This document shows, piece after piece, positions 3,821 through 61,660 of a DNA stretch of 64,000 bases; position 1 is the first letter of the stretch, and each line of letters starts with the position of its first letter. Source of the stretch: Dehalococcoidia bacterium (GTDB lineage: Bacteria; Chloroflexota; Dehalococcoidia; Lucifugimonadales; SAR202-VII-2). A program made the translations under genes and the position numbers. The stretch spans positions 230,520-294,519 of the forward strand of contig CBDDDS010000003.1 of NCBI GenBank assembly GCA_965226745.1, read 5' to 3'. Below the pieces are notes generated by a model. The model searched no databases. It saw only the letters and a program-made list of their open reading frames with translations, and was not told the DNA's origin.

Positions 3821-4156
3821 ATGTACTGCGTTTTCTGCGAGATCATAGCCGGGAAACTGCCGGCCAGGTTCTTCCACGGGGAAGAGGACTTGGTGGTCAT
3901 AGCGAACCAGTTGACCTGGGCGCCCGTGATGCTTCTGGTGATTCCCCGGGAACACATGACGCAAGAGCAGCTGTGGTCTTCCGCCCTCTTGCAACGGATG
4001 GGGCAGGTGGCGGTGCAGATGGGTCAGCGGCACTGTCCCGGCGGCTTCAGACTGCTCTCCAACTTCGGCCGGGACGCCATGCAGAGTCAGCCTCACGGGC
4101 ACGTCCATGTCCTGGGCGGCATGTTCCTGGGTCCGTACGTGCGGCGGGAGTCCTAG
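3821..4156 (+). CDS. HIT family protein
   Basis: MYCVFCEIIAGK N-terminus and histidine triad HGHVHVLGG. Confidence 0.8.
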   Translation: MYCVFCEIIAGKLPARFFHGEEDLVVIANQLTWAPVMLLVIPREHMTQEQLWSSALLQRMGQVAVQMGQRHCPGGFRLLSNFGRDAMQSQPHGHVHVLGGMFLGPYVRRES

Positions 4157-10773: not shown

Positions 10774-10992
10774 GATTTACCTCCGGAGCGCGCGCCTCTC
10801 GAATCGCCGCCTTATGGTACGTCCTATGGGCCGCCATTGTCATCTCGACGCGGGCACAGGGGCGGGGGATGGGGTGGATTCCCGCCTGCGCGGGAATGGC
10901 TGCTGGCTGCGATGGCGTTCGGCGGTTGCTTTTGGATGCCCCTTCCCTGGAAGCTAGGGAATCTCTGAACAAGCCCCCCACCCACGGCGGAA

Positions 10993-11213
10993 CCTCAGTC
11001 CCTGCCCTTGTACGCGGGGAAGGCTAGGAAGCGTCGGGACGCCCCCCAACCTCCTCCCCCAAGCAGGGTGCAGGGGGCTGCGCCCCCGCCGGGGGTAACA
11101 GGGGTGTCCCCCTGTACCCAAAAACGTCGGAGGGCGGAGCGGGCGGGATGGCGGCGCAGGCCAAGCCAAACCCTCGGCTGAAGTAGGGCGCAGGCCACAA
11201 CAAGACCCTCCCC
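10993..11213 (-). repeat. GC-rich mosaic hairpin repeat (R family), upstream flank of element copy A
   Basis: Reverse complement of the unit seen at 42521-42745, 47408-48070, 50003-50350 and 61508-61660. Contains the GTACAGGGGGA-n-TCCCCCTGTAC type hairpin. Confidence 0.8.
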
Positions 11214-11337: not shown

Positions 11338-11705
11338 TTGCAAAATCCGAACACTTGTGCTATAATATCCCCATGAAGTGGGCCGGGGGCCCGCTTCTCC
11401 TTCTCGGAGCCTGCCGCATAACGTATGTACTGGGGGCTAACCACAGAGAATCCCCCTGTGGCAGGGGCGCTGAGGGAACAACCCTAGGGGCAAGACCGTC
11501 CGAGGAAGGCTGGGACCGGAGCGAATGCCATTGTAAGGCACAGGCTCTTTGGAGCCATCCCGCTCCGTAACGAATCGTAACAACTAGGTAACGGTTCGTA
11601 ACGGCTCCGTAACGACTCGTAACAGCTTTGTAACGGCCTGTAACGCCTTTGTAATGGCTCCGTGCCTGCAAACCCCGAAATCCGGCTGACAAACGTTACA
11701 AAGCC
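11338..11705 (+). ncRNA. copy A of dispersed promoter + structured core + phased-repeat element (candidate novel ncRNA)
   Basis: -35 TTGCAA (11338-11343), 17-nt spacer, extended -10 TGTGCTATAAT (TATAAT 11361-11366). Conserved core to ~11566, repeats 11567-11661, and 3' module CGTGCCTGCAAACCCCGAAATCCGGCTG. Confidence 0.6.
11567..11661 (+). repeat. phased short repeats, GTAAC core, 9 units
   Basis: GTAAC (last unit GTAAT) starts are spaced 10,11,10,11,10,11,10,11 nt, giving a 21-nt super-period. Confidence 0.9.
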
Positions 11706-20127: not shown

Positions 20128-20176
20128 CGGCCCAGGGCAAAACAAGACCATCCCCTCCCGCCCCACCACCGCCCCC

Positions 20177-20567
20177 TTGCAAAATAAGAACGAGTGTGCT
20201 ATAATGTCCCCATGAAGTGGGCAGCCGGCCCGCTTCTCTTTCTCGGAGCCTGCCGCATACGTTTAGCACTGTGGGCTAACCATAGAGAATCCCCCTGTGG
20301 CAGGGGCGCTGAGGGAACAACCCAAGGGGCAAGACCCTCCGAGGAAGGTTGGGACCGGAGCCAATGCCGTTATAAGGCACAGGCTGCTTGGAGCTATCCC
20401 GCTCCATTACGGTTCCGTTACGGTTCGTTACGGGGCCATTACGGTTCCTTTACAGATCCCTTACAGCTTCATTACTGCTAGTTACGCCTTGTTACGCCCT
20501 CTGTTACGGCTTCGTGCCTGCAACCCCCGAAATCCGGCTGGCCAGTGTAACAACAAACAATCAAAGG
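20177..20567 (+). ncRNA. copy B of dispersed promoter + core + phased-repeat element
   Basis: -35 TTGCAA 20177-20182, 17-nt spacer, TGTGCTATAAT (TATAAT 20200-20205). Core to 20405, repeats 20406-20513, and 3' modules CGTGCCTGCAACCCCCGAAATCCGGCTG and ACAAACAATCAAAGG. Confidence 0.6.
20406..20513 (+). repeat. phased short repeats, (G/A/T/C)TTAC core, 10 units
   Basis: TTAC starts are spaced 11,10,11,11,11,11,10,10,12 nt. The core is the reverse complement of the GTAAC core of copies A, C and E. Confidence 0.9.
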
Positions 20568-40101: not shown

Positions 40102-40293
40102 GGGATGGTCTCGGTGTGTGTGGGCCTCTACATCTTATGATGGGCCAAGCGGGTGAACGGCGCAACGAGCGGCGCCGCGTTGACCTTGCTTCTCTTTCAG
40201 CATCCTGGCGCCGGGCCGCGTGGTTGCGGAGCTCCGGGCGGGGCCACGCTATAGAGCCTGTCCCATAATCCCGTGCAATTCCCTCCTCTCCCT

Positions 40294-40395
40294 AGGGGAA
40301 CGAAGGGAGCGTCGCTTTGTTGCCTTGGCGCTTCCAGACCCCCATCCTAACCTTCCCCCGAGTACAGGGGCAGGGACAGAGGCGCCCCCGGCGCC
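40294..40395. repeat. R-family repeat fragment (hairpin module)
   Basis: GAGCGTCGCTTTGTTGCCTTGGCGCTTCCAGACCCCCATCCTAACCTTCCCCCGAGTACAGGGGCAGGGACAGAG, near-identical to 47450-47525. Confidence 0.8.
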
Positions 40396-40432
40396 CCGCT
40401 GGGCGAGACGACAGGCCCTAGGGCGCTGCAAG

Positions 40433-41719
40433 TTACAGCCACACGCCGATTTCGGCCCGGTGGTTGAGTTCCGAGAGCGCCCAGACCAGGGCGTCGAGGC
40501 GGTCCGGGCTGGCGCCGCTTTCGGGGATCCAGGTGCAGAGCTGGTCCTCGAGGTCTTCCAGGCCGGGGCCGACGTGGAAGACCTTCCCCTGCTCGTAGAG
40601 TGCGGCGATGGGCTCGGCCCGGACGAGCTTGCCTCGGCTGGCGCGGACGGCCTTGTAGGGAATGGATGCGTCCACCGTGCGGAGGACGGACTCCACGAGC
40701 TCGCCGCCGTTGTTGACCTCGCCGATGATGCGGTCGGCGGCGAACTCCCGGTGCGCCCGCACGGCCCGCCGCGCCCACCCGTCGGGCGACAGCCTGCACG
40801 AGCGGTCGGCGAGGACGTAGAAGCTGCCGTCGACGCCGCGGCCGGCAACGACGATGCCGGTCTCGTCGGCGCTGTCGTTGTAGGAGACGGCGGGGTCGAT
40901 GGCGACGACGACGCGGAGGAGGTCCGGGGCGTCGGGGATGGACTGGAAGACCTTGCGTTGCCAGAGGGCGCCTTCGACGTCGTCAAGAAGCTCGGCGTGG
41001 ACCTCCTGGCGGCCCAGGCGGGTCCCCTCGTAGCGGGCGGCGATCCGTTGGAGGAAGGCCTCGGAGAGGTTGGCCCGGTTCTCGTAGGTGGCGCCGCGAG
41101 TGACCGCCGTTGACGGCGAGGCGAGGAGCTCGCGGATGAGGCGAACGGGCCGGGGGGTGGTGGTGACGACGGTGCGCGGGGGTTGGCCCAAGCGGAGGCC
41201 GAACTGGAGCATGTCCCAGGCTTCCGGGTAGCGCCAGGCGGCCATCTCGTCGCACCAGGCCGCATGGAACTGGGGCCCGCGCAGGCGGTCGGGCTCGTCG
41301 GCGGAGAAGGTGGTGGCGACGACGCCGTTGGGCCAGGTGAGGCGGCGCTTGGACGGCTCATAGGCGGGGCGCTCGTCGGGGTGGCCCACGGAGAGGATGC
41401 CGCTGTGGCCCTCGACCATGACGTCGCGAGCGTCGGCGGCGGTAGGGGCGACGAGGGCAATGCGGCGGGCGTTGTTGGAAGCGGCCTGGGCGCGGACCCA
41501 TTCGGCGCCGGTGCGGGTCTTGCCCCAGCCTCGGCCGGCCAGGACGAGCCAGACAAGCCAGTCGCCGTCGGGGGGAAGCTGGGAGGGGCGGGCCCAGGTG
41601 GGCCAGTCCCACTCCAGGGACTCAGCCGCTCCCGGCGCCAACTCCCGTATCACGCTCTTCCTCAAGGCGGGCTGCGATGCTATCGATTGCGCGCTGGAGT
41701 TCGGCTCTTGCATCCTCAT
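40433..41719 (-). CDS. phage/GTA-type terminase large subunit (apparently intact, orphan)
   Basis: 428 aa. Walker A LAGRGWGKTRTGAEWV. WCDEMAAW. Nuclease region VVAIDPAVS...DETGIVVAG. The start may be an internal GTG, because the ORF overlaps the upstream gene by 98 nt. Confidence 0.85.
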   Translation of the reverse strand: MRMQEPNSSAQSIASQPALRKSVIRELAPGAAESLEWDWPTWARPSQLPPDGDWLVWLVLAGRGWGKTRTGAEWVRAQAASNNARRIALVAPTAADARDVMVEGHSGILSVGHPDERPAYEPSKRRLTWPNGVVATTFSADEPDRLRGPQFHAAWCDEMAAWRYPEAWDMLQFGLRLGQPPRTVVTTTPRPVRLIRELLASPSTAVTRGATYENRANLSEAFLQRIAARYEGTRLGRQEVHAELLDDVEGALWQRKVFQSIPDAPDLLRVVVAIDPAVSYNDSADETGIVVAGRGVDGSFYVLADRSCRLSPDGWARRAVRAHREFAADRIIGEVNNGGELVESVLRTVDASIPYKAVRASRGKLVRAEPIAALYEQGKVFHVGPGLEDLEDQLCTWIPESGASPDRLDALVWALSELNHRAEIGVWL

Positions 41720-42083
41720 CCCTCATCCGTGCTGACTTTTCTGCGGGGTCGCCGGGTTTGGAGTGCCGGACGACGGCGCGCTCGACGATCCACTCGGCGA
41801 CGCTGGTGTCTTTCTCCGCGAGCGCGTCGCTTATCACCTCGACGGCCTCCCCAGCGAGCTGGAGCAGTGCGCCTTCAACCTCCTGCCGATGCGAGCCCGG
41901 CGACGCCAGCGCCGGGTCCGGTCCAGCCTGGGGGTCCGTTCCGTCGCTGCGCTTTGCGTGTTCTGCGCGGTGGGCGGCCACCCGGCAGCGCCCGGAACAG
42001 TAGATAGCGTCTCTCCGCAGAGCAGGGGGGAAGCGGGAGGCGCACCAAGGGCAATAGCGGAGAGAGCGCAAGCTGTAGTTCAT
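41622..42083 (-). CDS. zinc-ribbon protein, possible small terminase/DNA-binding partner
   Basis: 153 aa. N-terminal CPWC...YCSGRCRVAAHR zinc ribbon and an acidic helical C-terminus. Immediately upstream of TerL. Confidence 0.45.
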   Translation of the reverse strand: MNYSLRSLRYCPWCASRFPPALRRDAIYCSGRCRVAAHRAEHAKRSDGTDPQAGPDPALASPGSHRQEVEGALLQLAGEAVEVISDALAEKDTSVAEWIVERAVVRHSKPGDPAEKSARMRDEDARAELQRAIDSIAARLEEERDTGVGAGSG

Positions 42084-42127: not shown

Positions 42128-42464
42128 GGCTTTGTAACGTTTGTCAGCCGGATTCGGGGTTTGCAGGCACGGAGCCATTACAAAGGCATTACGAGGCATT
42201 ACAAGCCGTTACACAGTCGTTACGGAGCCGTTACAGAGCGGGATGGCTCCAAGGAGCCTGTGCCTTACAACGGCATTCGCTCCGGTTCCAGCCTTCCTCG
42301 GAGGGTTGTGGGCCTGGGGATGTTCCCCAGACCCTCCTGCCACAGGGGGATTCTCTGTGGTTAGCCCCCAGTGCATACGCTATGCGGCAGGCTCCTAAGG
42401 AAGAGAAGCGGGCCTAGGACCTACTTCATGGGGGTACTATAGCACAACTGTTCTTATTTTGCAA
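42128..42464 (-). ncRNA. copy C of dispersed promoter + core + phased-repeat element
   Basis: On the minus strand: -35 TTGCAA (42459-42464), 17-nt spacer, TGTGCTATAGT (-10 at 42436-42441), conserved core, repeats 42171-42234, and 3' module CGTGCCTGCAAACCCCGAATCCGGCTG. It ends 44 nt before the ATG at 42083. Confidence 0.6.
42171..42234 (-). repeat. phased short repeats, GTAAC/GTAAT core, 6 units
   Basis: The minus strand reads GTAACGGCTCC GTAACGACTGT GTAACGGCTT GTAATGCCTC GTAATGCCTTT GTAATGGCTCC. Confidence 0.9.
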
Positions 42465-42520
42465 TAGGGGGGTGGCGGGGGCCCCGGACTCCGGCGTCCG
42501 CCCGCCGATGGGGACGGATG

Positions 42521-42745
42521 GTTTTGTCTTGGCCTGCGCCCTCCATCAGCGAAGGGTCTGGCTTGGCGTGCGCCGCTATCCCGCCCGCACCACCCTCCGA
42601 CGTTTTTGGGTACAGGGGGACTCCCCCTGTACCCCCGGCGGGGGCTGCGCCCCCTGCACCCTGCTTGGGGGGAGGGAGAGGGCTTGCGTTGGCGCGTCCG
42701 GGCGCTTCCTAACCTGCCGCTGGGTACGGGGGTAGGGAGAGAGGG
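42521..42745 (+). repeat. R-family mosaic hairpin repeat, promoter-proximal flank of copy C
   Basis: TTTTGTCTTGGCCTGCGCC...GTACAGGGGGACTCCCCCTGTAC...GGGGGCTGCGCCCCC...CTTCCTAACCTGCC. Confidence 0.8.
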
Positions 42746-47407: not shown

Positions 47408-48070
47408 CTGGCGGGGGCTGCGCCCCCTGCACCCCGCTTGGGAGTGGGGGGAGCGTCGCTTTCTTGCCTGGGCGCTTCCGGACCCCCATCCTAACCTTCC
47501 CCCGAGTACAGGGGCAGGGACAGAGCAGCCCCCTGCACCCTGCTTGGGAGTGGGGGTTTTGTTTTGGCCTGCGCCCTCTTTCAGGGGAGGGTCTATTTTA
47601 GCCAGCGCCGTTGTCCCACCTGGCCCACCCTCCAACGTTTTTGGAAACAGGGGGACTCCCCCTGTACCCCCGGCGGGAACCAAGGGTTCCCTGCACCCTC
47701 CTTTGAGAGACAGGTGAGGCCTTCGCTTAGCATTGCGGGGGACACGCTGTAGCCCCAGCGGGGGCTGCGCCCCCTGCACCCTGCTTGGGGAACGGAGGGT
47801 CTTGTTGTGGCCTGCGCCTTCTTTCAGGGGAGGGTCTGGCTTGGCCTGCGCCGTTGTCCCACCTGGCCCACCCTCCAACGTTTTTGGAAACAGGGGGATT
47901 CCCCCTGTACCCCCGGCGGGGGCTGCGCCCCCTGCACCCTGCTTGGGGAACGGGGGGAGCGTCGCTTTCTTGCCTGGGCGCTTCCGGACCCCCATCCTAA
48001 CCTGCCCCTGTACTCGGGGGCAGGGACAGAGCAGCCCCCTGCACCCCCGCTTGGGGGAAGGGGGTTTGCG
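47408..48070. repeat. ~660-bp array of mosaic R-family repeats filling a convergent intergenic region
   Basis: About three ~230-bp units, each built from modules GGGGGCTGCGCCCCCTGCACCCTGCTTGGGG, TTGGCCTGCGCC...CAACGTTTTTGGAAACAGGGGGA-TCCCCCTGT and CTTCCGGACCCCCATCCTAACCT(T/G)CCCC-loop-GGGGCAGGGACAGAG. Confidence 0.85.
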
Positions 48071-49567: not shown

Positions 49568-49947
49568 GGATGGGCAGGGTTCCCCCGGCTTCGGTCTCTT
49601 CCTTTGATTGTATGTGTTCCTGCTTTTTCTTCTCCCCCGGCGCCCCGTAGTCGTGGAGCCGTCGCGTAGCCGTCGTGGAGCTGTCGTGGAGCTGTCGCGT
49701 AGCTGTCGCGGATGCGTCGCGTAGCCGGATGGCTCCAAAGAGCTTGCCTTACAACGGCATTCGCTCCGGTCCCAGCCTTCCTCGGACGGTCTTGCCCCTA
49801 GGGATGTTCCCTCAGCGCCCCTGCCACAGGGGGATTCTCTATGGTTAGCCCCCAGTACATACGTTATGCGGCAGGCTCCAAGGAAGAGAAGCGGGCCGGG
49901 GGCCCACTTCATGGGGAGACTATAGCACAAAGGTTCGCATAATGCAA
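49568..49947 (-). ncRNA. copy D of dispersed promoter + core + phased-repeat element
   Basis: On the minus strand: -35 TTGCAT (49942-49947), 17-nt spacer, TGTGCTATAGT (-10 at 49919-49924), conserved core, repeats 49651-49727, and a 3' module shared with copy E (…ACATACAATCAAAGG…GGGGGAACCCTGCCCATCCC). Confidence 0.6.
49651..49727 (-). repeat. phased short repeats, exact 11-nt period x7, GTCG(T/C)G core (plus-strand reading)
   Basis: GTCGTGGAGCC GTCGCGTAGCC GTCGTGGAGCT GTCGTGGAGCT GTCGCGTAGCT GTCGCGGATGC GTCGCGTAGCC. Confidence 0.95.
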
Positions 49948-50002
49948 TAGGCGTGGGGCATAGGCTTCCCCCGCGGCGGGGGGCAGGGATTTGGGATGGG
50001 TG

Positions 50003-50350
50003 GGCTTGTTGTGGCCTGCGCCTTCCTTCACCGGAGGGTCTGGCTTGGCGTGCGCCGCTATCCCGCCCACACCGCCCTCTGACGTTTTCCAGGACAGGGG
50101 GACACCCCCTGTACCCCCGGCGGGAACCAAGGGTTCCCTGCACCCTCCTTTTGGGAGACAGGTGAGGCCTTCGCTCAGCATTGCGGGGGACTCGCTGTAC
50201 CCTCGGCGTGGGCTGCGCCCCCCTGCTCCCCCGCTCGGCGGCGGTCGCGAGCTTGCGTTGGCGGGGCGTGGCGCTTCCTGGCCTGCCAACGGGCGCGGGG
50301 GCGTGGACAGAGGGTTGCCCCGTAGCCGGGGCAGGGGTGGTGGAGAGGGG
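50003..50350 (+). repeat. R-family mosaic repeat, promoter-proximal flank of copy D
   Basis: Same module order as 42521-42745 and 61508-61660. Confidence 0.8.
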
Positions 50351-50457
50351 GTAGGGGTTGGACATTGGCGGCTTGCGGGGCGGAGGGCGTGGGGGGTACT
50401 TTGGGCCTGCCATCCTTCCCGCTTCTTGGAGACTCCGCGGATGAGCGCACCGGAAAA

Positions 50458-52888
50458 ATGCCTATCCACATAGACTACGACGACCCCAAGTACGCCAAGG
50501 CCGCCGCTGAGATCCTGCGGCGGTACGACAACAACGATCTCGAGGCGAACATCACGAGCGCGGTGCGGGACTTCCTCGTCATCACTGGCCTCGTCGGACC
50601 CAGCGAGGTCGACCTGGAGAACCCACCGGCCCAGGGCTCGCGCCGGGCGGTGGACCTCACCGCCCTTGACACCTTCATCGAGTTCAAGCGCAGGATCGGT
50701 CCCGCCGGGGGCTTCCCCCCAAACTGGGAGTACGTGGAGCAGCTCGACGATTACCTGGCGCAGGCGCTAGGGCAGGGCCGGATGTGCATGGGCATCCTGG
50801 CCGACGGCAAGCACTGGCTGCTGCGCTCACATAACGCCACTTCGGTCAAAACGACTCCGTCCGACGCCTTCACCCTGGAGGACCCGAACCGCTGGACCCT
50901 CCTCTATGAGTGGCTCCGCGACCGCGCCCTGTTCACAGCGGAGAACGTGGTCCCGGACCGAGAGAGCATCGGGAACCACTTCGGCCCCGACAGCGCGGTC
51001 TACGAGCGCGACATAGCGGAACTCAAAGCCCTGTACGGCCAGTGCGCCGATTTCAACACCATCATGGTCAAGAGGCGGCTGTGGCAGGACCTGCTCATGG
51101 CGGCCCTGGGCGAAATCGCCGGCACTCCCGCTGAGTTGGATGACCTGTTCGTCCGCCACACCTATTTGAGCGCCGTCATCGGCATGGCGGTGCAGGCGTC
51201 CTTCGGCAACGACATCCGCCAACTGGCGGAGACCGATCCCGCGGACCTGCTCCACGGCCGCGACTTCCGCGACAAGACCGGGCTTCAGGGCGTTGTGGAG
51301 TCGGACTTCTTCGCCTGGCCTACGGAGGTGGGGGGCCTGCTGCTGCTGAAGGCGCTGGCGCGCCGGGTGGCGAGGTTCGACTGGATGGAGGCGCCCACTG
51401 ACGTCGCCGCGATCCTGTACGAGACCGTGATCCCGCCCGACGAGCGCCGCCAATTGGGGGAGTACTACACCCCAGACTGGCTGGCGCGAACGATCGTGCG
51501 GGAAGTGGTCACCGACCCGTTGAACCAGAGCGTCCTAGACCCGGCCTGCGGCTCGGGGACGTTCGTAGCCGAGGCAGTCACCCACTTCATAGAGGCCGCC
51601 AACGCCATGTCCCTTGATCCCCAAGAGGTGTTGGGACGGCTGCGCTCCTCCGTCGTCGGCATCGATGTCCACCCAGCGGCGGTGCACCTGGCGCGGGCCG
51701 CTTGGGTCCTGGCCGCGAGGCCAGCGATACAGGCCGCCGTCGCTTATGGCGTTGCCTCCAACATCACCGCGCCTATCTACCTGGGAGACGCCCTTCAGCT
51801 CCGGTTCCGCGCTGGGGACATGTTCGCCCAGCGCGACGTCACGGTGCCGGTGGGGGACAAGCAGAATACGGAGTTGGTGTTTCCGAGGAACCTCGTGGAG
51901 CGGGCCGAGACCTTCGACGCCCTGATGGGCGACATTGCCGAAGCCATCGAGCGCGGCGGCGACCCCCACCTGGCCCTCGACGACAACCACATCACCGACC
52001 CGGGTGAGCGGGAGACCCTGAAGAAGACCATCGTGACCCTGCAAATGCTGCACGACGAGGGCCGCAACCACATATGGGCCTACTACACGCGCAACCTCGT
52101 GCGTCCAGTGGCCATGTCTCGGACCAAGGTGGACGTGATTGTGGGGAATCCGCCGTGGCTGAACTACAACCAGACCGTCGGCATACTGCGCACGGAATTG
52201 GAGAGGCAAAGCAGGGACCTCTACGGCATCTGGGCCGGCGGCCGCTACGCCACCCATCAGGACGTGGCCGGGCTGTTCTTTGCCCGGAGCGTGGACCTGT
52301 ACCTGAAGGACGGGGGCGTCATTGGCTTTGTGCTGCCGCACAGCGCCCTGCAGGCGGGTCAATACAGCAAGTGGCGCAGTGGGCACTGGCGGGAGAGGAA
52401 CAGGGCTAGGAGCGTTCAGGTGGACTTTGCGTTCAAGCCCGCCTGGGACCTAGAGCGGCTGGCGCCCAACACCTTCTTCCCAATGCCAGCATCCGTGGTC
52501 TTTGCCGCCAAGCTCCCGGTGGACACTCCGGGCAGGGTTCTGGCGGGAGAGGTGGAGCGCTGGCTTGGCATGGCCGGCTCGCCCTCCGTGCGGCGGGTGC
52601 GCGCCGGCATCACGGACACGTCGGCTGGCGGCGGCTCCCCCTACGCCGACCACTCCCTTCAAGGAGCGACGATTGTTCCGCGCTGCCTGTTCTTGGTGGA
52701 AGAGACCGAGAATCCGGCCATCGTCCGGGCCGGGCGGACGGCGACCGTGAATCCGAGACGGGGCGCCCAAGACAAGGAACCCTGGCGCAGCCTCGACCTG
52801 ACCGCAATCACAAGTCAGACCATCGAATCCAATCACGTCTACGACGTTCACTTGGGAGAGACCGTCGTCCCCTACGCCACACTTGACC
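50458..52888 (+). pseudogene. MmeI-like type IIG restriction-modification enzyme, N-terminal fragment (interrupted by IS)
   Basis: PD-(D/E)xK-like nuclease motif VDLTALDTFIEFKRR. Gamma-class N6-adenine MTase motif I LDPACGSGTF and motif IV VGNPPWLNY. The reading frame is cut at 52888 by the IS inverted repeat. Confidence 0.8.
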
Positions 52889-52920
52889 TGACCTGCCCCC
52901 TGAATTAGGTCCAAGTATTC

Positions 52921-61036: not shown

Positions 61037-61482
61037 GGGATGGGCAGGGTTCCCCCGGCTTCAGCCTCATTCTTTGATTGTTTGTGATTCTTTGATTGTT
61101 TGTGCGCCTGCTTTTTCTTCTCCCGTAGGCGTGGAGCCGTTACAAAGGCGTTACAAGCTGTTACAAGGGCGTTACGTTACGAGCCGTTACGAGCCGTTAC
61201 GAGTCGTTACACAGTCGTTACGGAGCCGTTACTGATCTTACGAGCCGTTACGGAGTTGGGCGGCTCCTAAAGAGCCTGTGCCTTACAGCGGCATTCTCTC
61301 CGTTCCCGGCCTTCCTCGGAGGGTCTTGCCCCTCGGGTTGTTCCCTCAGCGCCCCTGCCACAGGGGGACTCTCCATGGTTAGCCCCCAGTACATACGTTA
61401 TGCGGCAGGCTCCGAGAAAGAGAAGCGGGCCTGGGGCCCACTTCATTGGGGGTACTATAGCACACCCGTTCGTATTTTGCAA
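61037..61482 (-). ncRNA. copy E of dispersed promoter + core + phased-repeat element
   Basis: On the minus strand: -35 TTGCAA (61477-61482), 17-nt spacer, TGTGCTATAGT (-10 at 61454-61459), conserved core, repeats 61139-61251, and a 3' module shared with copy D that includes an 18-nt tandem duplication (61069-61104). Confidence 0.6.
61139..61251 (-). repeat. phased short repeats, GTAAC core (GTTAC on plus strand), 12 units
   Basis: Spacing is 9-11 nt, with one 5-nt doublet (GTTACGTTAC). Confidence 0.9.
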
Positions 61483-61507
61483 TGGGGGGGTGGCATAACC
61501 TGGACGG

Positions 61508-61660
61508 AGGGTCTTGTTGTGGCCTGCGCCGCTCCTTCAGCGGAGGGTTTGTTTTGGCCTGTGCCGCTATCCCGCCCGCTCCACCCTCCAACGTTTTTAG
61601 AAACAGGGGGACTCGCTGTACCCCCGGCGGGGGCTGCGCCCCCTGCACCTCGCTCGGCGG
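61508..61660 (+). repeat. R-family mosaic repeat, promoter-proximal flank of copy E
   Basis: GTCTTGTTGTGGCCTGCGCC...CAACGTTTTTAGAAACAGGGGGACTC...GGGGGCTGCGCCCCCTGCACC. Confidence 0.8.

Follow-up and report, generated by a model that had tools for sequence, protein, structure and literature searches.

The locus described here raises the question of whether a short tandem tract with an unusual repeat motif is an isolated accident or one form of a recurring feature, and of what its regular spacing might mean. The tract lies in a 64,000-nucleotide (nt) stretch of DNA from a Dehalococcoidia bacterium (GenBank assembly GCA_965226745.1, contig CBDDDS010000003.1, positions 230,520 to 294,519 of the forward strand), the whole of which we refer to as the window. 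BLAST searches and alignment reveal five copies of one element in the window, copies A and B on the plus strand and copies C, D, and E on the minus strand. The element consists, in order, of a sigma-70-type promoter, a conserved core of approximately 190 nt, a tract of 10- to 11-nt repeats that ranges from 4 to 14 units among copies, and a 3' module. An initial annotation had noted that the repeat motif of copy D departs from that of the other copies, and had read the tracts as homogenized copy by copy. We find that copy D belongs to a class of tracts, the CGAC tail class, with members in several genomes, and that tract length changes by whole units. We consider it probable that the copy D tract is a variant of a recurring tandem tract in a lineage-restricted dispersed element, and that it forms a phased array of short sites predicted to be recognition sites.

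The copy D tract was first defined by reading the sequence directly. It occupies positions 49650 to 49726 of the window (minus strand), where GTCG recurs seven times in exact 11-nt phase, the first GTCG being at 49650. The seven exact 11-nt units reported in the initial annotation are therefore confirmed, although the array begins one base to the left of the interval given there, 49651 to 49727. Tandem Repeats Finder (TRF) reports the tract at 49650 to 49727 with a period of 11, 7.1 copies, 0% indels, and a score of 79, and also reports a 33-nt higher-order period with a score of 105. On the plus strand, the units are, in order, GTCGTGGAGCC, GTCGCGTAGCC, GTCGTGGAGCT, GTCGTGGAGCT, GTCGCGTAGCT, GTCGCGGATGC, and GTCGCGTAGCC; on the sense strand, which for copy D is the minus strand, they read GGCTACGCGAC, GCATCCGCGAC, AGCTACGCGAC, AGCTCCACGAC, AGCTCCACGAC, GGCTACGCGAC, and GGCTCCACGAC. 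The consensus proposed earlier, GTCG(T/C)G(G/T)AGC(C/T), fits six of the seven units but not the sixth (..GGATGC). An arrangement of five GTCG motifs at exact 11-nt spacing is unique in the window to the copy D array, where it gives three overlapping matches, and it was matched in none of 100 dinucleotide-preserving shuffles.

The array starts immediately after ..TTGGAGCCATCC, which is the position at which the tracts of the other four copies start, and alignment confirms that it is joined to the same conserved core (81-90% identity), as had been proposed. The related proposal that position and period are both kept is likewise borne out, given that the position of the tract is retained in copy D and a period of 10-11 nt is retained in all tail classes. 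Read on the sense strand, the copy D unit is GGCTCC-(G/A)CGAC; its counterpart in copy B is ..CC-(N)TTAC, and the one found in copies A, C, and E is GGCTCC-GTAAC. The copy D motif thus does differ from that of A, C, and E, but copy B carries a variant motif as well, which had been overlooked.

Outside the tract, copy D has the parts found in the rest of the family. It aligns with copies A, B, C, and E and with 58 copies in a metagenome-assembled genome (MAG) described below, and its tract is followed by a 3' module and a terminal box. All copies have a site of the form TTGCA(A/T)-17-TATA(A/G)T in which TG precedes the -10 hexamer; the promoter-like site of copy D (49919 to 49947, minus strand) reads TTGCAT-17-TATAGT and likewise has the TG. 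A scan with the consensus promoter flagged the site in copies A (10/12) and E (9/12) and did not flag that of copy D, in which the -35 hexamer matches at 3/6 positions. The core of copy D (approximately 186 nt; 49727 to 49912, minus strand) is non-coding and differs from the other cores by 1- to 2-nt indels; a small protein encoded by the core (ATGAAG...) was considered and is ruled out by these 1- and 2-nt indels among copies. The first hairpin of the core, GAAGTGGGCC-CCC-GGCCCGCTTC followed by TCTTCCTT, has a terminator-like score (49888 to 49910, minus strand). The 3' modules are of two types, one in copies A, B, and C and the other in copies D and E, and often end in ACA(A/T)ACAATCAAAG. 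That of copy D (CCACGACTACGG..GAGAAGAAAAAGCAGG; 49602 to 49656, minus strand) overlaps the last tail unit and ends in the box ACATACAATCAAAG at 49602 to 49615.

A census was carried out with a 21-base core pattern against one genome per species, covering 185,579 species representatives. It gave 61 matches in 59 stretches, all in one Dehalococcoidia MAG (OZ253584.1, 3.09 Mb), together with one chance match, so that the copy number in this MAG is at least 61. The window does not come from this MAG, since regions common to the two are 84-96% identical. The core pattern had no match in viral contigs and only two chance matches in metagenome contigs, both within a coding region. A search for tRNA and transfer-messenger RNA genes found none, and a search of the literature on this element in Dehalococcoidia found nothing relevant. 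A clustered regularly interspaced short palindromic repeat (CRISPR) array was also considered and rejected, given that the whole unit is 10-11 nt and that such arrays have 23- to 50-nt repeats with unique spacers of comparable length and, as a rule, cas genes; no Cas family match was found among the neighboring open reading frames (ORFs) scanned (approximately 38.9-52.9 kb and 59.3-60.7 kb).

Classification of the tails of 61 copies, with copy D included, gives a GTAAC class of 30 copies, a CGAC class of eight (D, L004, L009, L012, L013, L023, L044, and L056), a GTCNC class of eight, a TTAC class of five, eight degenerate tails with mixed pentamers, and two other tails. The motif of copy D is therefore not a unique accident: it recurs in seven copies of the MAG and in the relatives L071, L072, and L064, the last with 14 CGAT units. 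In all tail classes, the direct repeats are spaced by 10 or 11 nt, which is approximately one helical turn. In GTAAC tails, spacings of 10 nt (116 occurrences) and 11 nt (121 occurrences) average 10.5 nt and alternate in a ratio of 158:40, giving a 21-nt double unit, and CGAC tails have 46 spacings of 11 nt and five of 10 nt.

Comparison of units among arrays indicates which part of the unit is conserved. For 10-mer units, identity is 0.660 when both units come from one array, 0.663 when they come from different arrays of one class, and 0.473 when their classes differ. The claim that units are more alike within than between copies consequently holds only between motif classes. Nor are units homogenized copy by copy, as had been suggested; it is the pentamer that is class-specific, although copy D alone is unusually homogeneous, with a unit identity of 0.82. 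When the 5-nt motif is considered separately, its identity is 0.88 within arrays, 0.87 between arrays of the same class, and 0.51 between classes, and the corresponding values for the spacer are 0.44, 0.45, and 0.43. The motif half accounts for the whole of the class difference, indicating that the pentamer and not the unit is kept uniform, a result that homogenization of whole units alone would explain less well than constraint on a short motif. Among 21 pairs of GTAAC tails of equal length, mismatches occur at 4.0% of pentamer sites and 12.1% of spacer sites, a difference of approximately 3-fold (Fisher p ~1e-11, with pairs that are not independent of one another).

These values bear on the possibility that the tract is a neutral minisatellite, namely a functionless variable number tandem repeat in a selfish repeat, with classes that are founder effects and a period that persists through whole-unit slippage. 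If that were so, motif and spacer should decay alike, yet motif identity within arrays is twice that of the spacers, spacers are about as similar between classes as within arrays, and pentamer sites change less than spacers. In addition, TTAC and GTAAC arrays compared by eye appear to share position-specific spacers close to their 3' ends and differ in the pentamer throughout, a pattern that simple re-expansion from one unit would not give.

Differences in unit number between loci that share a flank, and the signs of recent expansion in copy D, nevertheless favor a neutral minisatellite. The copy E locus has one flank in common with the MAG locus L021, and the two tails differ by whole-unit indels. 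Throughout the family, units lie head to tail, and their number differs between loci that share flanks. Higher-order repeats of 33 nt occur in the CGAC arrays of D, L009, and L044, and in copy D this super-repeat and the high unit identity are signs of recent expansion. Copy B and L034 lie in a 3.5-kb match that is 92% identical overall; the promoter, the first ~110 nt of the core, and the downstream flank are highly similar, and the mid-core and tail belong to different classes. Separately, synteny between the window and the MAG stops exactly at the 5' edge of copy B (approximately 20150 to 20180, compared with L034), suggesting that copies may mediate rearrangements.

The site of copy D can be compared directly with that of a close relative, since the contig L073 has the element at the orthologous position and its amidohydrolase is 99% identical. 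Identity between the two is 91-93% in the flanks, 85% in the promoter and core, 92% in the 3' module, and only 67%, with 43 gap columns, in the tail. The greater divergence of core and tail than of flanks at orthologous sites points to exchange between copies. The L073 tail is of the TTAC class and is joined to the same 3' module via a junction unit, GGCTCCACGAC, which is also present in the TTAC-class copies L011b, L038, and L057. The same unit makes up three of the seven units of copy D, and the remainder are near variants common to the CGAC arrays of the MAG. A TTAC tail with GGCTCCACGAC at L073 suggests that the copy D tail arose either by recent local expansion of GGCTCCACGAC or by conversion from a CGAC-class donor. 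Slippage and conversion had been proposed in the initial annotation, and the whole-unit indels between E and L021, the 33-nt super-repeats, and the divergence of core and tail at two orthologous loci all support that proposal.

At least some copies move as cargo of an IS5-like MITE (miniature inverted-repeat transposable element). At the MAG locus L020, the whole cassette lies in a 903-bp insertion that has perfect inverted ends of 17 bp, GGAATCTCTGAACAAGC, and shows a CTAG duplication, and the corresponding site is empty in the window (near 4152 to 4156), with both flanks aligning. A 4-bp duplication such as CTAG is typical of IS5-like elements. Complete versions of the MITE, of approximately 520-750 bp, are present in L023 and L008. 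At least one MITE end accompanies ~15 of the 61 copies, with both ends in L020, L023, L008, and L038 and one end in ~11 more, and TTAG is found around L030. In the window, a single exact terminal inverted repeat, GGAATCTCTGAACAAGC after CTAG, is present at 10958 to 10974 (plus strand), 364 bp upstream of the copy A promoter. No transposase was found in the window, and no autonomous insertion sequence (IS) with matching ends was found among the IS5-family transposases near copies. The IS5-family transposase genes beside several MAG copies were considered as the parent of the element and were rejected, since their own ends (GAGACCTTTGCRTAAY) differ and since they lie nested, as insertions, within the MITE or within modules that resemble repetitive extragenic palindromic (REP) sequences.

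These IS5-family insertion sequences are of two kinds (L030 4132 to 5945; L006, L008, and L048; and L004, L016, and L043) and are inserted inside MITE or REP-like modules. The transposase of the first type has 324 amino acids (aa) and is present in four 100% identical copies, and that of the second type is approximately 60% identical to it. The inner part, CCTTTGCGTAAC, of the IS ends GAGACCTTTGCRTAAY resembles tail units such as GCCTTTGTAACGG.

The orientation of copies relative to the next gene is random, with 22 copies co-directional and 31 convergent, and on these counts the idea that the element supplies downstream genes with a mobile promoter was rejected. Random orientation, carriage of part of the family by a MITE, and the existence of degenerate tails would all be consistent with a neutral minisatellite, for which there is also a published precedent in the minisatellite inside the bacterial MITE BrickBuilt (PMC4596501). 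Weighing these points against the anatomy of the unit, we regard a neutral minisatellite as possible but rather unlikely.

The presence of a promoter raises a further possibility, that the tract functions at the level of RNA. The element would in that case specify a non-coding or leader RNA of ~300-400 nt, in which the GUAAC or CGAC motifs would either bind a multimeric RNA-binding protein, as a sponge or in leader control, or pair with complementary sequence. A conserved extended -10 promoter is found upstream of every copy, non-triplet indels exclude coding, the motif is strand-specific relative to the promoter, a terminator-like hairpin lies right after the start site, and the tract is located in the 5' leader at one protein-coding locus, described below. 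Predicted RNA folds are more stable than those of shuffles (z = -3.25 for copy D and -2.63 for copy A), two long-range helices recur in them, and in one long-range helix a C-G to U-A change is seen in the relatives L064 and L070. However, in a 32-sequence alignment that includes distant relatives, the 42 proposed pairs are paired in 91.9% of cells, compared with 91.4% in shuffles, and 4/42 are changed on both sides. Rfam gave no match at gathering thresholds across the whole window and only chance-level matches at E<=10 around copy D. A pentamer complementary to the tail is found in the 3' module of GTAAC tails (module GTTAC) and of two TTAC tails (module GTAAC), but a general pairing of tail with 3' module was rejected, since it fails in every CGAC tail. 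The 10/11 alternation also has no obvious meaning for a single-stranded RNA. Given the helical-turn spacing and the anatomy of pentamer and free spacer, we give a DNA site array priority over an RNA role, which we consider unlikely.

Several features of the predicted transcribed region can be recorded here. At 49888 to 49910 and at 61422 to 61444 (minus strand), the 23 nt that open the predicted transcript fold into a GC-rich hairpin of 10 bp with TCTTCCTT behind it, and the site scores as resembling an intrinsic terminator; the T-rich run has, in addition, a predicted pairing with GGAAGG farther downstream. A subgroup of cores (L064 3600 to 3690, L070, and L072) has an extra GC-rich segment of ~65 nt at the position of a short variable hairpin. 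In a distant relative, L066 (2215 to 2500), a Zn-ribbon gene is still preceded by the promoter, the predicted transcript start, a brief CGAC-like tract, and the 3' module, but little of the 190-nt core is left, and the core is thus dispensable there.

The protein-coding locus referred to above lies directly downstream of copy C, which forms its 5' leader. It comprises a Zn-ribbon ORF of 153 aa (41622 to 42083, minus strand) and a terminase large-subunit gene of 428 aa (40433 to 41719, minus strand) that overlaps the end of the Zn-ribbon ORF. Homologues of the Zn-ribbon protein led to ten loci in other assemblies (L063-L072), and promoter, tail, and 3' module are found directly upstream of the Zn-ribbon ORF in 10/10 of these fetched loci and likewise at several MAG copies. 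Behind the Zn-ribbon ORF there is often a terminase large-subunit gene or what remains of one. The locus is syntenic in L063, L064, and L067. The tails of these leaders are of the GTAAC class in copy C, L063, and L070, of the CGAC class in L071 and L072, CGAT in L064, GTCNC-like in L047, L065, L068, and L069, and degenerate or mixed in L066 and L067.

This arrangement suggests that the cassette might be a packaging or late-operon signal, consisting of the late promoter and small-terminase site of a degraded prophage, with the Zn-ribbon protein binding the repeats and the MITE having scattered the sites. In the window, L047, and L064, a large-subunit gene of the Terminase_6 family overlaps the Zn-ribbon ORF, and the size and position of this ORF, given phage gene order, are those typical of a small terminase subunit. 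However, a small-terminase identity for the Zn-ribbon protein is unsupported by Pfam, PHROG, and PDB, and its structure model is unusable for this purpose. Most relatives (L063, L065-L069, L071, and L072) either lack the large-subunit gene or have it in truncated form, with an intact gene in only a few, the element pattern has no match in viral contigs, and no further phage genes were found near the terminase pair in the window. The surroundings of copy C are ordinary metabolic genes, with a gene for an HtrA-like protease downstream and PrpD upstream. A large terminase subunit is confirmed at copy C only, and copy D lies beside amidohydrolase and DNA methylase genes. On balance, we find a packaging signal quite improbable.

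The same locus bears on the suggestion, made in the initial annotation, that each tail is a copy-specific determinant matched to its own partner, ligand, or neighboring genes. Motifs are uniform within an array and different between some copies, and, among the Zn-ribbon ORFs of the window, L063-L072, L047, and other MAG loci, motif class varies with a single residue of the protein: in the segment YCSxRCR-x-AA, V occurs with GTAAC leader tails (3/3), Q with CGAC or CGAT (3/3), and M or K with GTCNC. This association can be explained by physical linkage, since the tail is only ~150 nt from the codon. L070 combines a core of distant type with the V/GTAAC block. Elsewhere the classes are common to many dispersed copies, as with the 30 GTAAC and eight CGAC tails, orientation relative to the next gene is random, and close relatives can have tails of different classes at one and the same position in the chromosome. 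The proposed check for a correlation between tail class and 3' module type was run and found none. The CGAC copies of the MAG have the A/B/C type in 7/7 cases and copy D has the D/E type, and both types are found with GTAAC tails (19:11) and with TTAC tails (2:3). Copy-specific partners or ligands are thus unsupported, and for individual copies this explanation is already largely refuted; as a general account we consider it extremely unlikely. A bolder reading holds that the pentamers are putative sites for the Zn-ribbon protein encoded beside the ancestral copy, that protein and site switched specificity together (V/GTAAC, Q/GCGAC-GCGAT, and M or K/GTCNC), and that the MITE spread matched arrays at approximately one per 50 kb. 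We offer such a co-switch only as a hypothesis and regard it as highly doubtful; if it were true, the arrays could act as genome-wide operator-like or packaging-like sites for a phage-derived protein.

The explanation that we favor, then, is that the copy D tract is a phased array of short recognition sites in a dispersed element. Each unit would comprise a presumably constrained 5-nt recognition motif (G/A-Y-N-A-C) and a free spacer of 5-6 nt. Their spacing of about one helical turn suggests that a protein with sequence specificity would bind them cooperatively along a single face of the duplex, in an arrangement that may be compared to iteron operators and centromeres. The array would evolve by slippage and by conversion between copies, and the adjacent Zn-ribbon protein is the only candidate binder to which the data point.

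Several observations weigh against this explanation. Eight copies have degenerate mixed-pentamer tails, so that the motif has not been kept in every copy. The 3-fold lower rate of change in the pentamer may reflect selection on a few master copies, and the pairs that were compared share ancestry. The 10/11 alternation could be mere inheritance of the 21-nt double unit, which TRF reports as a period of 21. The tract lies downstream of a promoter, and hence it may function in RNA. The candidate binder has no informative family match, and its AlphaFold model is poor (predicted local distance difference test score, 57; predicted template modeling score, 0.24). Finally, copy D itself is without MITE ends, there being no match to GGAATCTCTGAACAAGC within five mismatches near 49.3-50.4 kb, and its orthologous site in L073 is likewise occupied by the element.

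The other four copies in the window have the same plan as copy D. Copy A (11338 to 11705, plus strand) has its promoter at 11338 to 11366, followed by the core, a GTAAC tail at ~11562 to 11660 with alternating 10- and 11-nt spacings, and an A/B/C-type module. Copy B (20177 to 20566, plus strand) has its promoter at 20177 to 20205, followed by the core, an (N)TTAC tail at 20403 to 20512, and an A/B/C-type module with its box at 20553 to 20566. For copy C (42128 to 42464, minus strand), the promoter is at 42436 to 42464 and the GTAAC/GTAAT tail at 42172 to 42239, with the core between them and an A/B/C-type module. For copy E (61072 to 61482, minus strand), the promoter is at 61454 to 61482, the core follows, the GTAAC tail is at 61134 to 61252, and the D/E-type module has a duplicated box at 61072 to 61103. 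Divergent from copy D is a large gene for an N6-adenine methylase that is Eco57I-like (type IIG-like; 50365 to 52908, plus strand), which is also found beside the orthologous site in L073. The GC-rich REP-like modules constitute a second family that flanks copies and forms mosaics with them (e.g., ..GGGGGTACAGGGGGAGTCCCCCTGT.. and ..GGAGGGCGGAGCGGGCGGGATAGCGGCG..). They are found in the window at 49991 to 50230, 47544 to 47944, 11054 to 11212, 42500 to 42666, 61500 to 61631, and 40292 to 40415, and in the MAG they are targets of IS insertion.

If the pentamers are binding sites, the family would constitute a natural series of phased arrays from one lineage, with several switches of specificity that were perhaps coupled to change in one residue of an adjacent small protein. 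It would then offer a compact system for following change in a protein-site code and the spread of regulatory sites by a transposon. Should the tract be no more than a minisatellite, the family would still be of use, since it would mark hotspots of ectopic gene conversion and rearrangement in the poorly studied Dehalococcoidia genomes, a use that follows from the break in synteny at a copy edge. It would also supply fast-evolving markers for strain typing and call for caution in the assembly and annotation of MAGs.

Among described systems, the nearest is BrickBuilt, a MITE of Porphyromonas gingivalis with a 23-nt minisatellite and 19 copies (Klein et al. 2015, PMC4596501). Like the element described here, BrickBuilt is species-restricted, intergenic, and present in multiple copies, and it has small inverted-repeat ends, a variable tandem tract between a leader and a tail subunit, and internal promoter elements. 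Its unit, however, is 23 nt without spacers, whereas the unit here is 10-11 nt, with a constrained pentamer and a free spacer, and exists in several classes. The present element also has a conserved core of ~190 nt and acts as the leader of a protein gene, and there is no sequence relationship between the two. The BOX elements of Streptococcus pneumoniae are mosaic interspersed repeats, present in roughly a hundred copies per genome, in which boxA is followed by boxB repeated n times and by boxC. They resemble the present element in having a middle module of variable number between conserved end modules and differ from it in host phylum and in sequence; boxB is ~45 bp and is not known to occur in motif classes, and BOX is not known to have IS5-type ends with a 4-bp duplication.

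For a short site at every helical turn, the closest mechanistic analogue is parC of plasmid R1, in which 11-bp direct repeats beside a promoter are each bound by one dimer of the small DNA-binding protein ParR, itself encoded by the operon of that promoter (PMC2241845). In contrast to the present arrays, parC occurs at one locus only, where the promoter is flanked by 2 x 5 iterons, and experiments have established both the binding and the function of parC. The arrays described here lie ~190 nt downstream of a promoter, are dispersed in tens of copies, have at most a candidate binder, and have no ParM- or ParR-type genes. Phage packaging sites provide a further comparison, since they can consist of arrays of short direct repeats that are recognised by the small terminase subunit, such as the hexamers of P1 pac. 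The likeness lies in short direct repeats at or just upstream of terminase genes; the differences are that here the Zn-ribbon protein is at most a candidate small terminase subunit, that the large-subunit gene has decayed in most relatives, and that most copies lie beside no terminase gene. The element is set apart from BrickBuilt, BOX, and parC by its unit of pentamer and spacer, by the coexistence of several motif classes, by its long core, and by its occurrence both as a dispersed repeat and as the leader of a gene.

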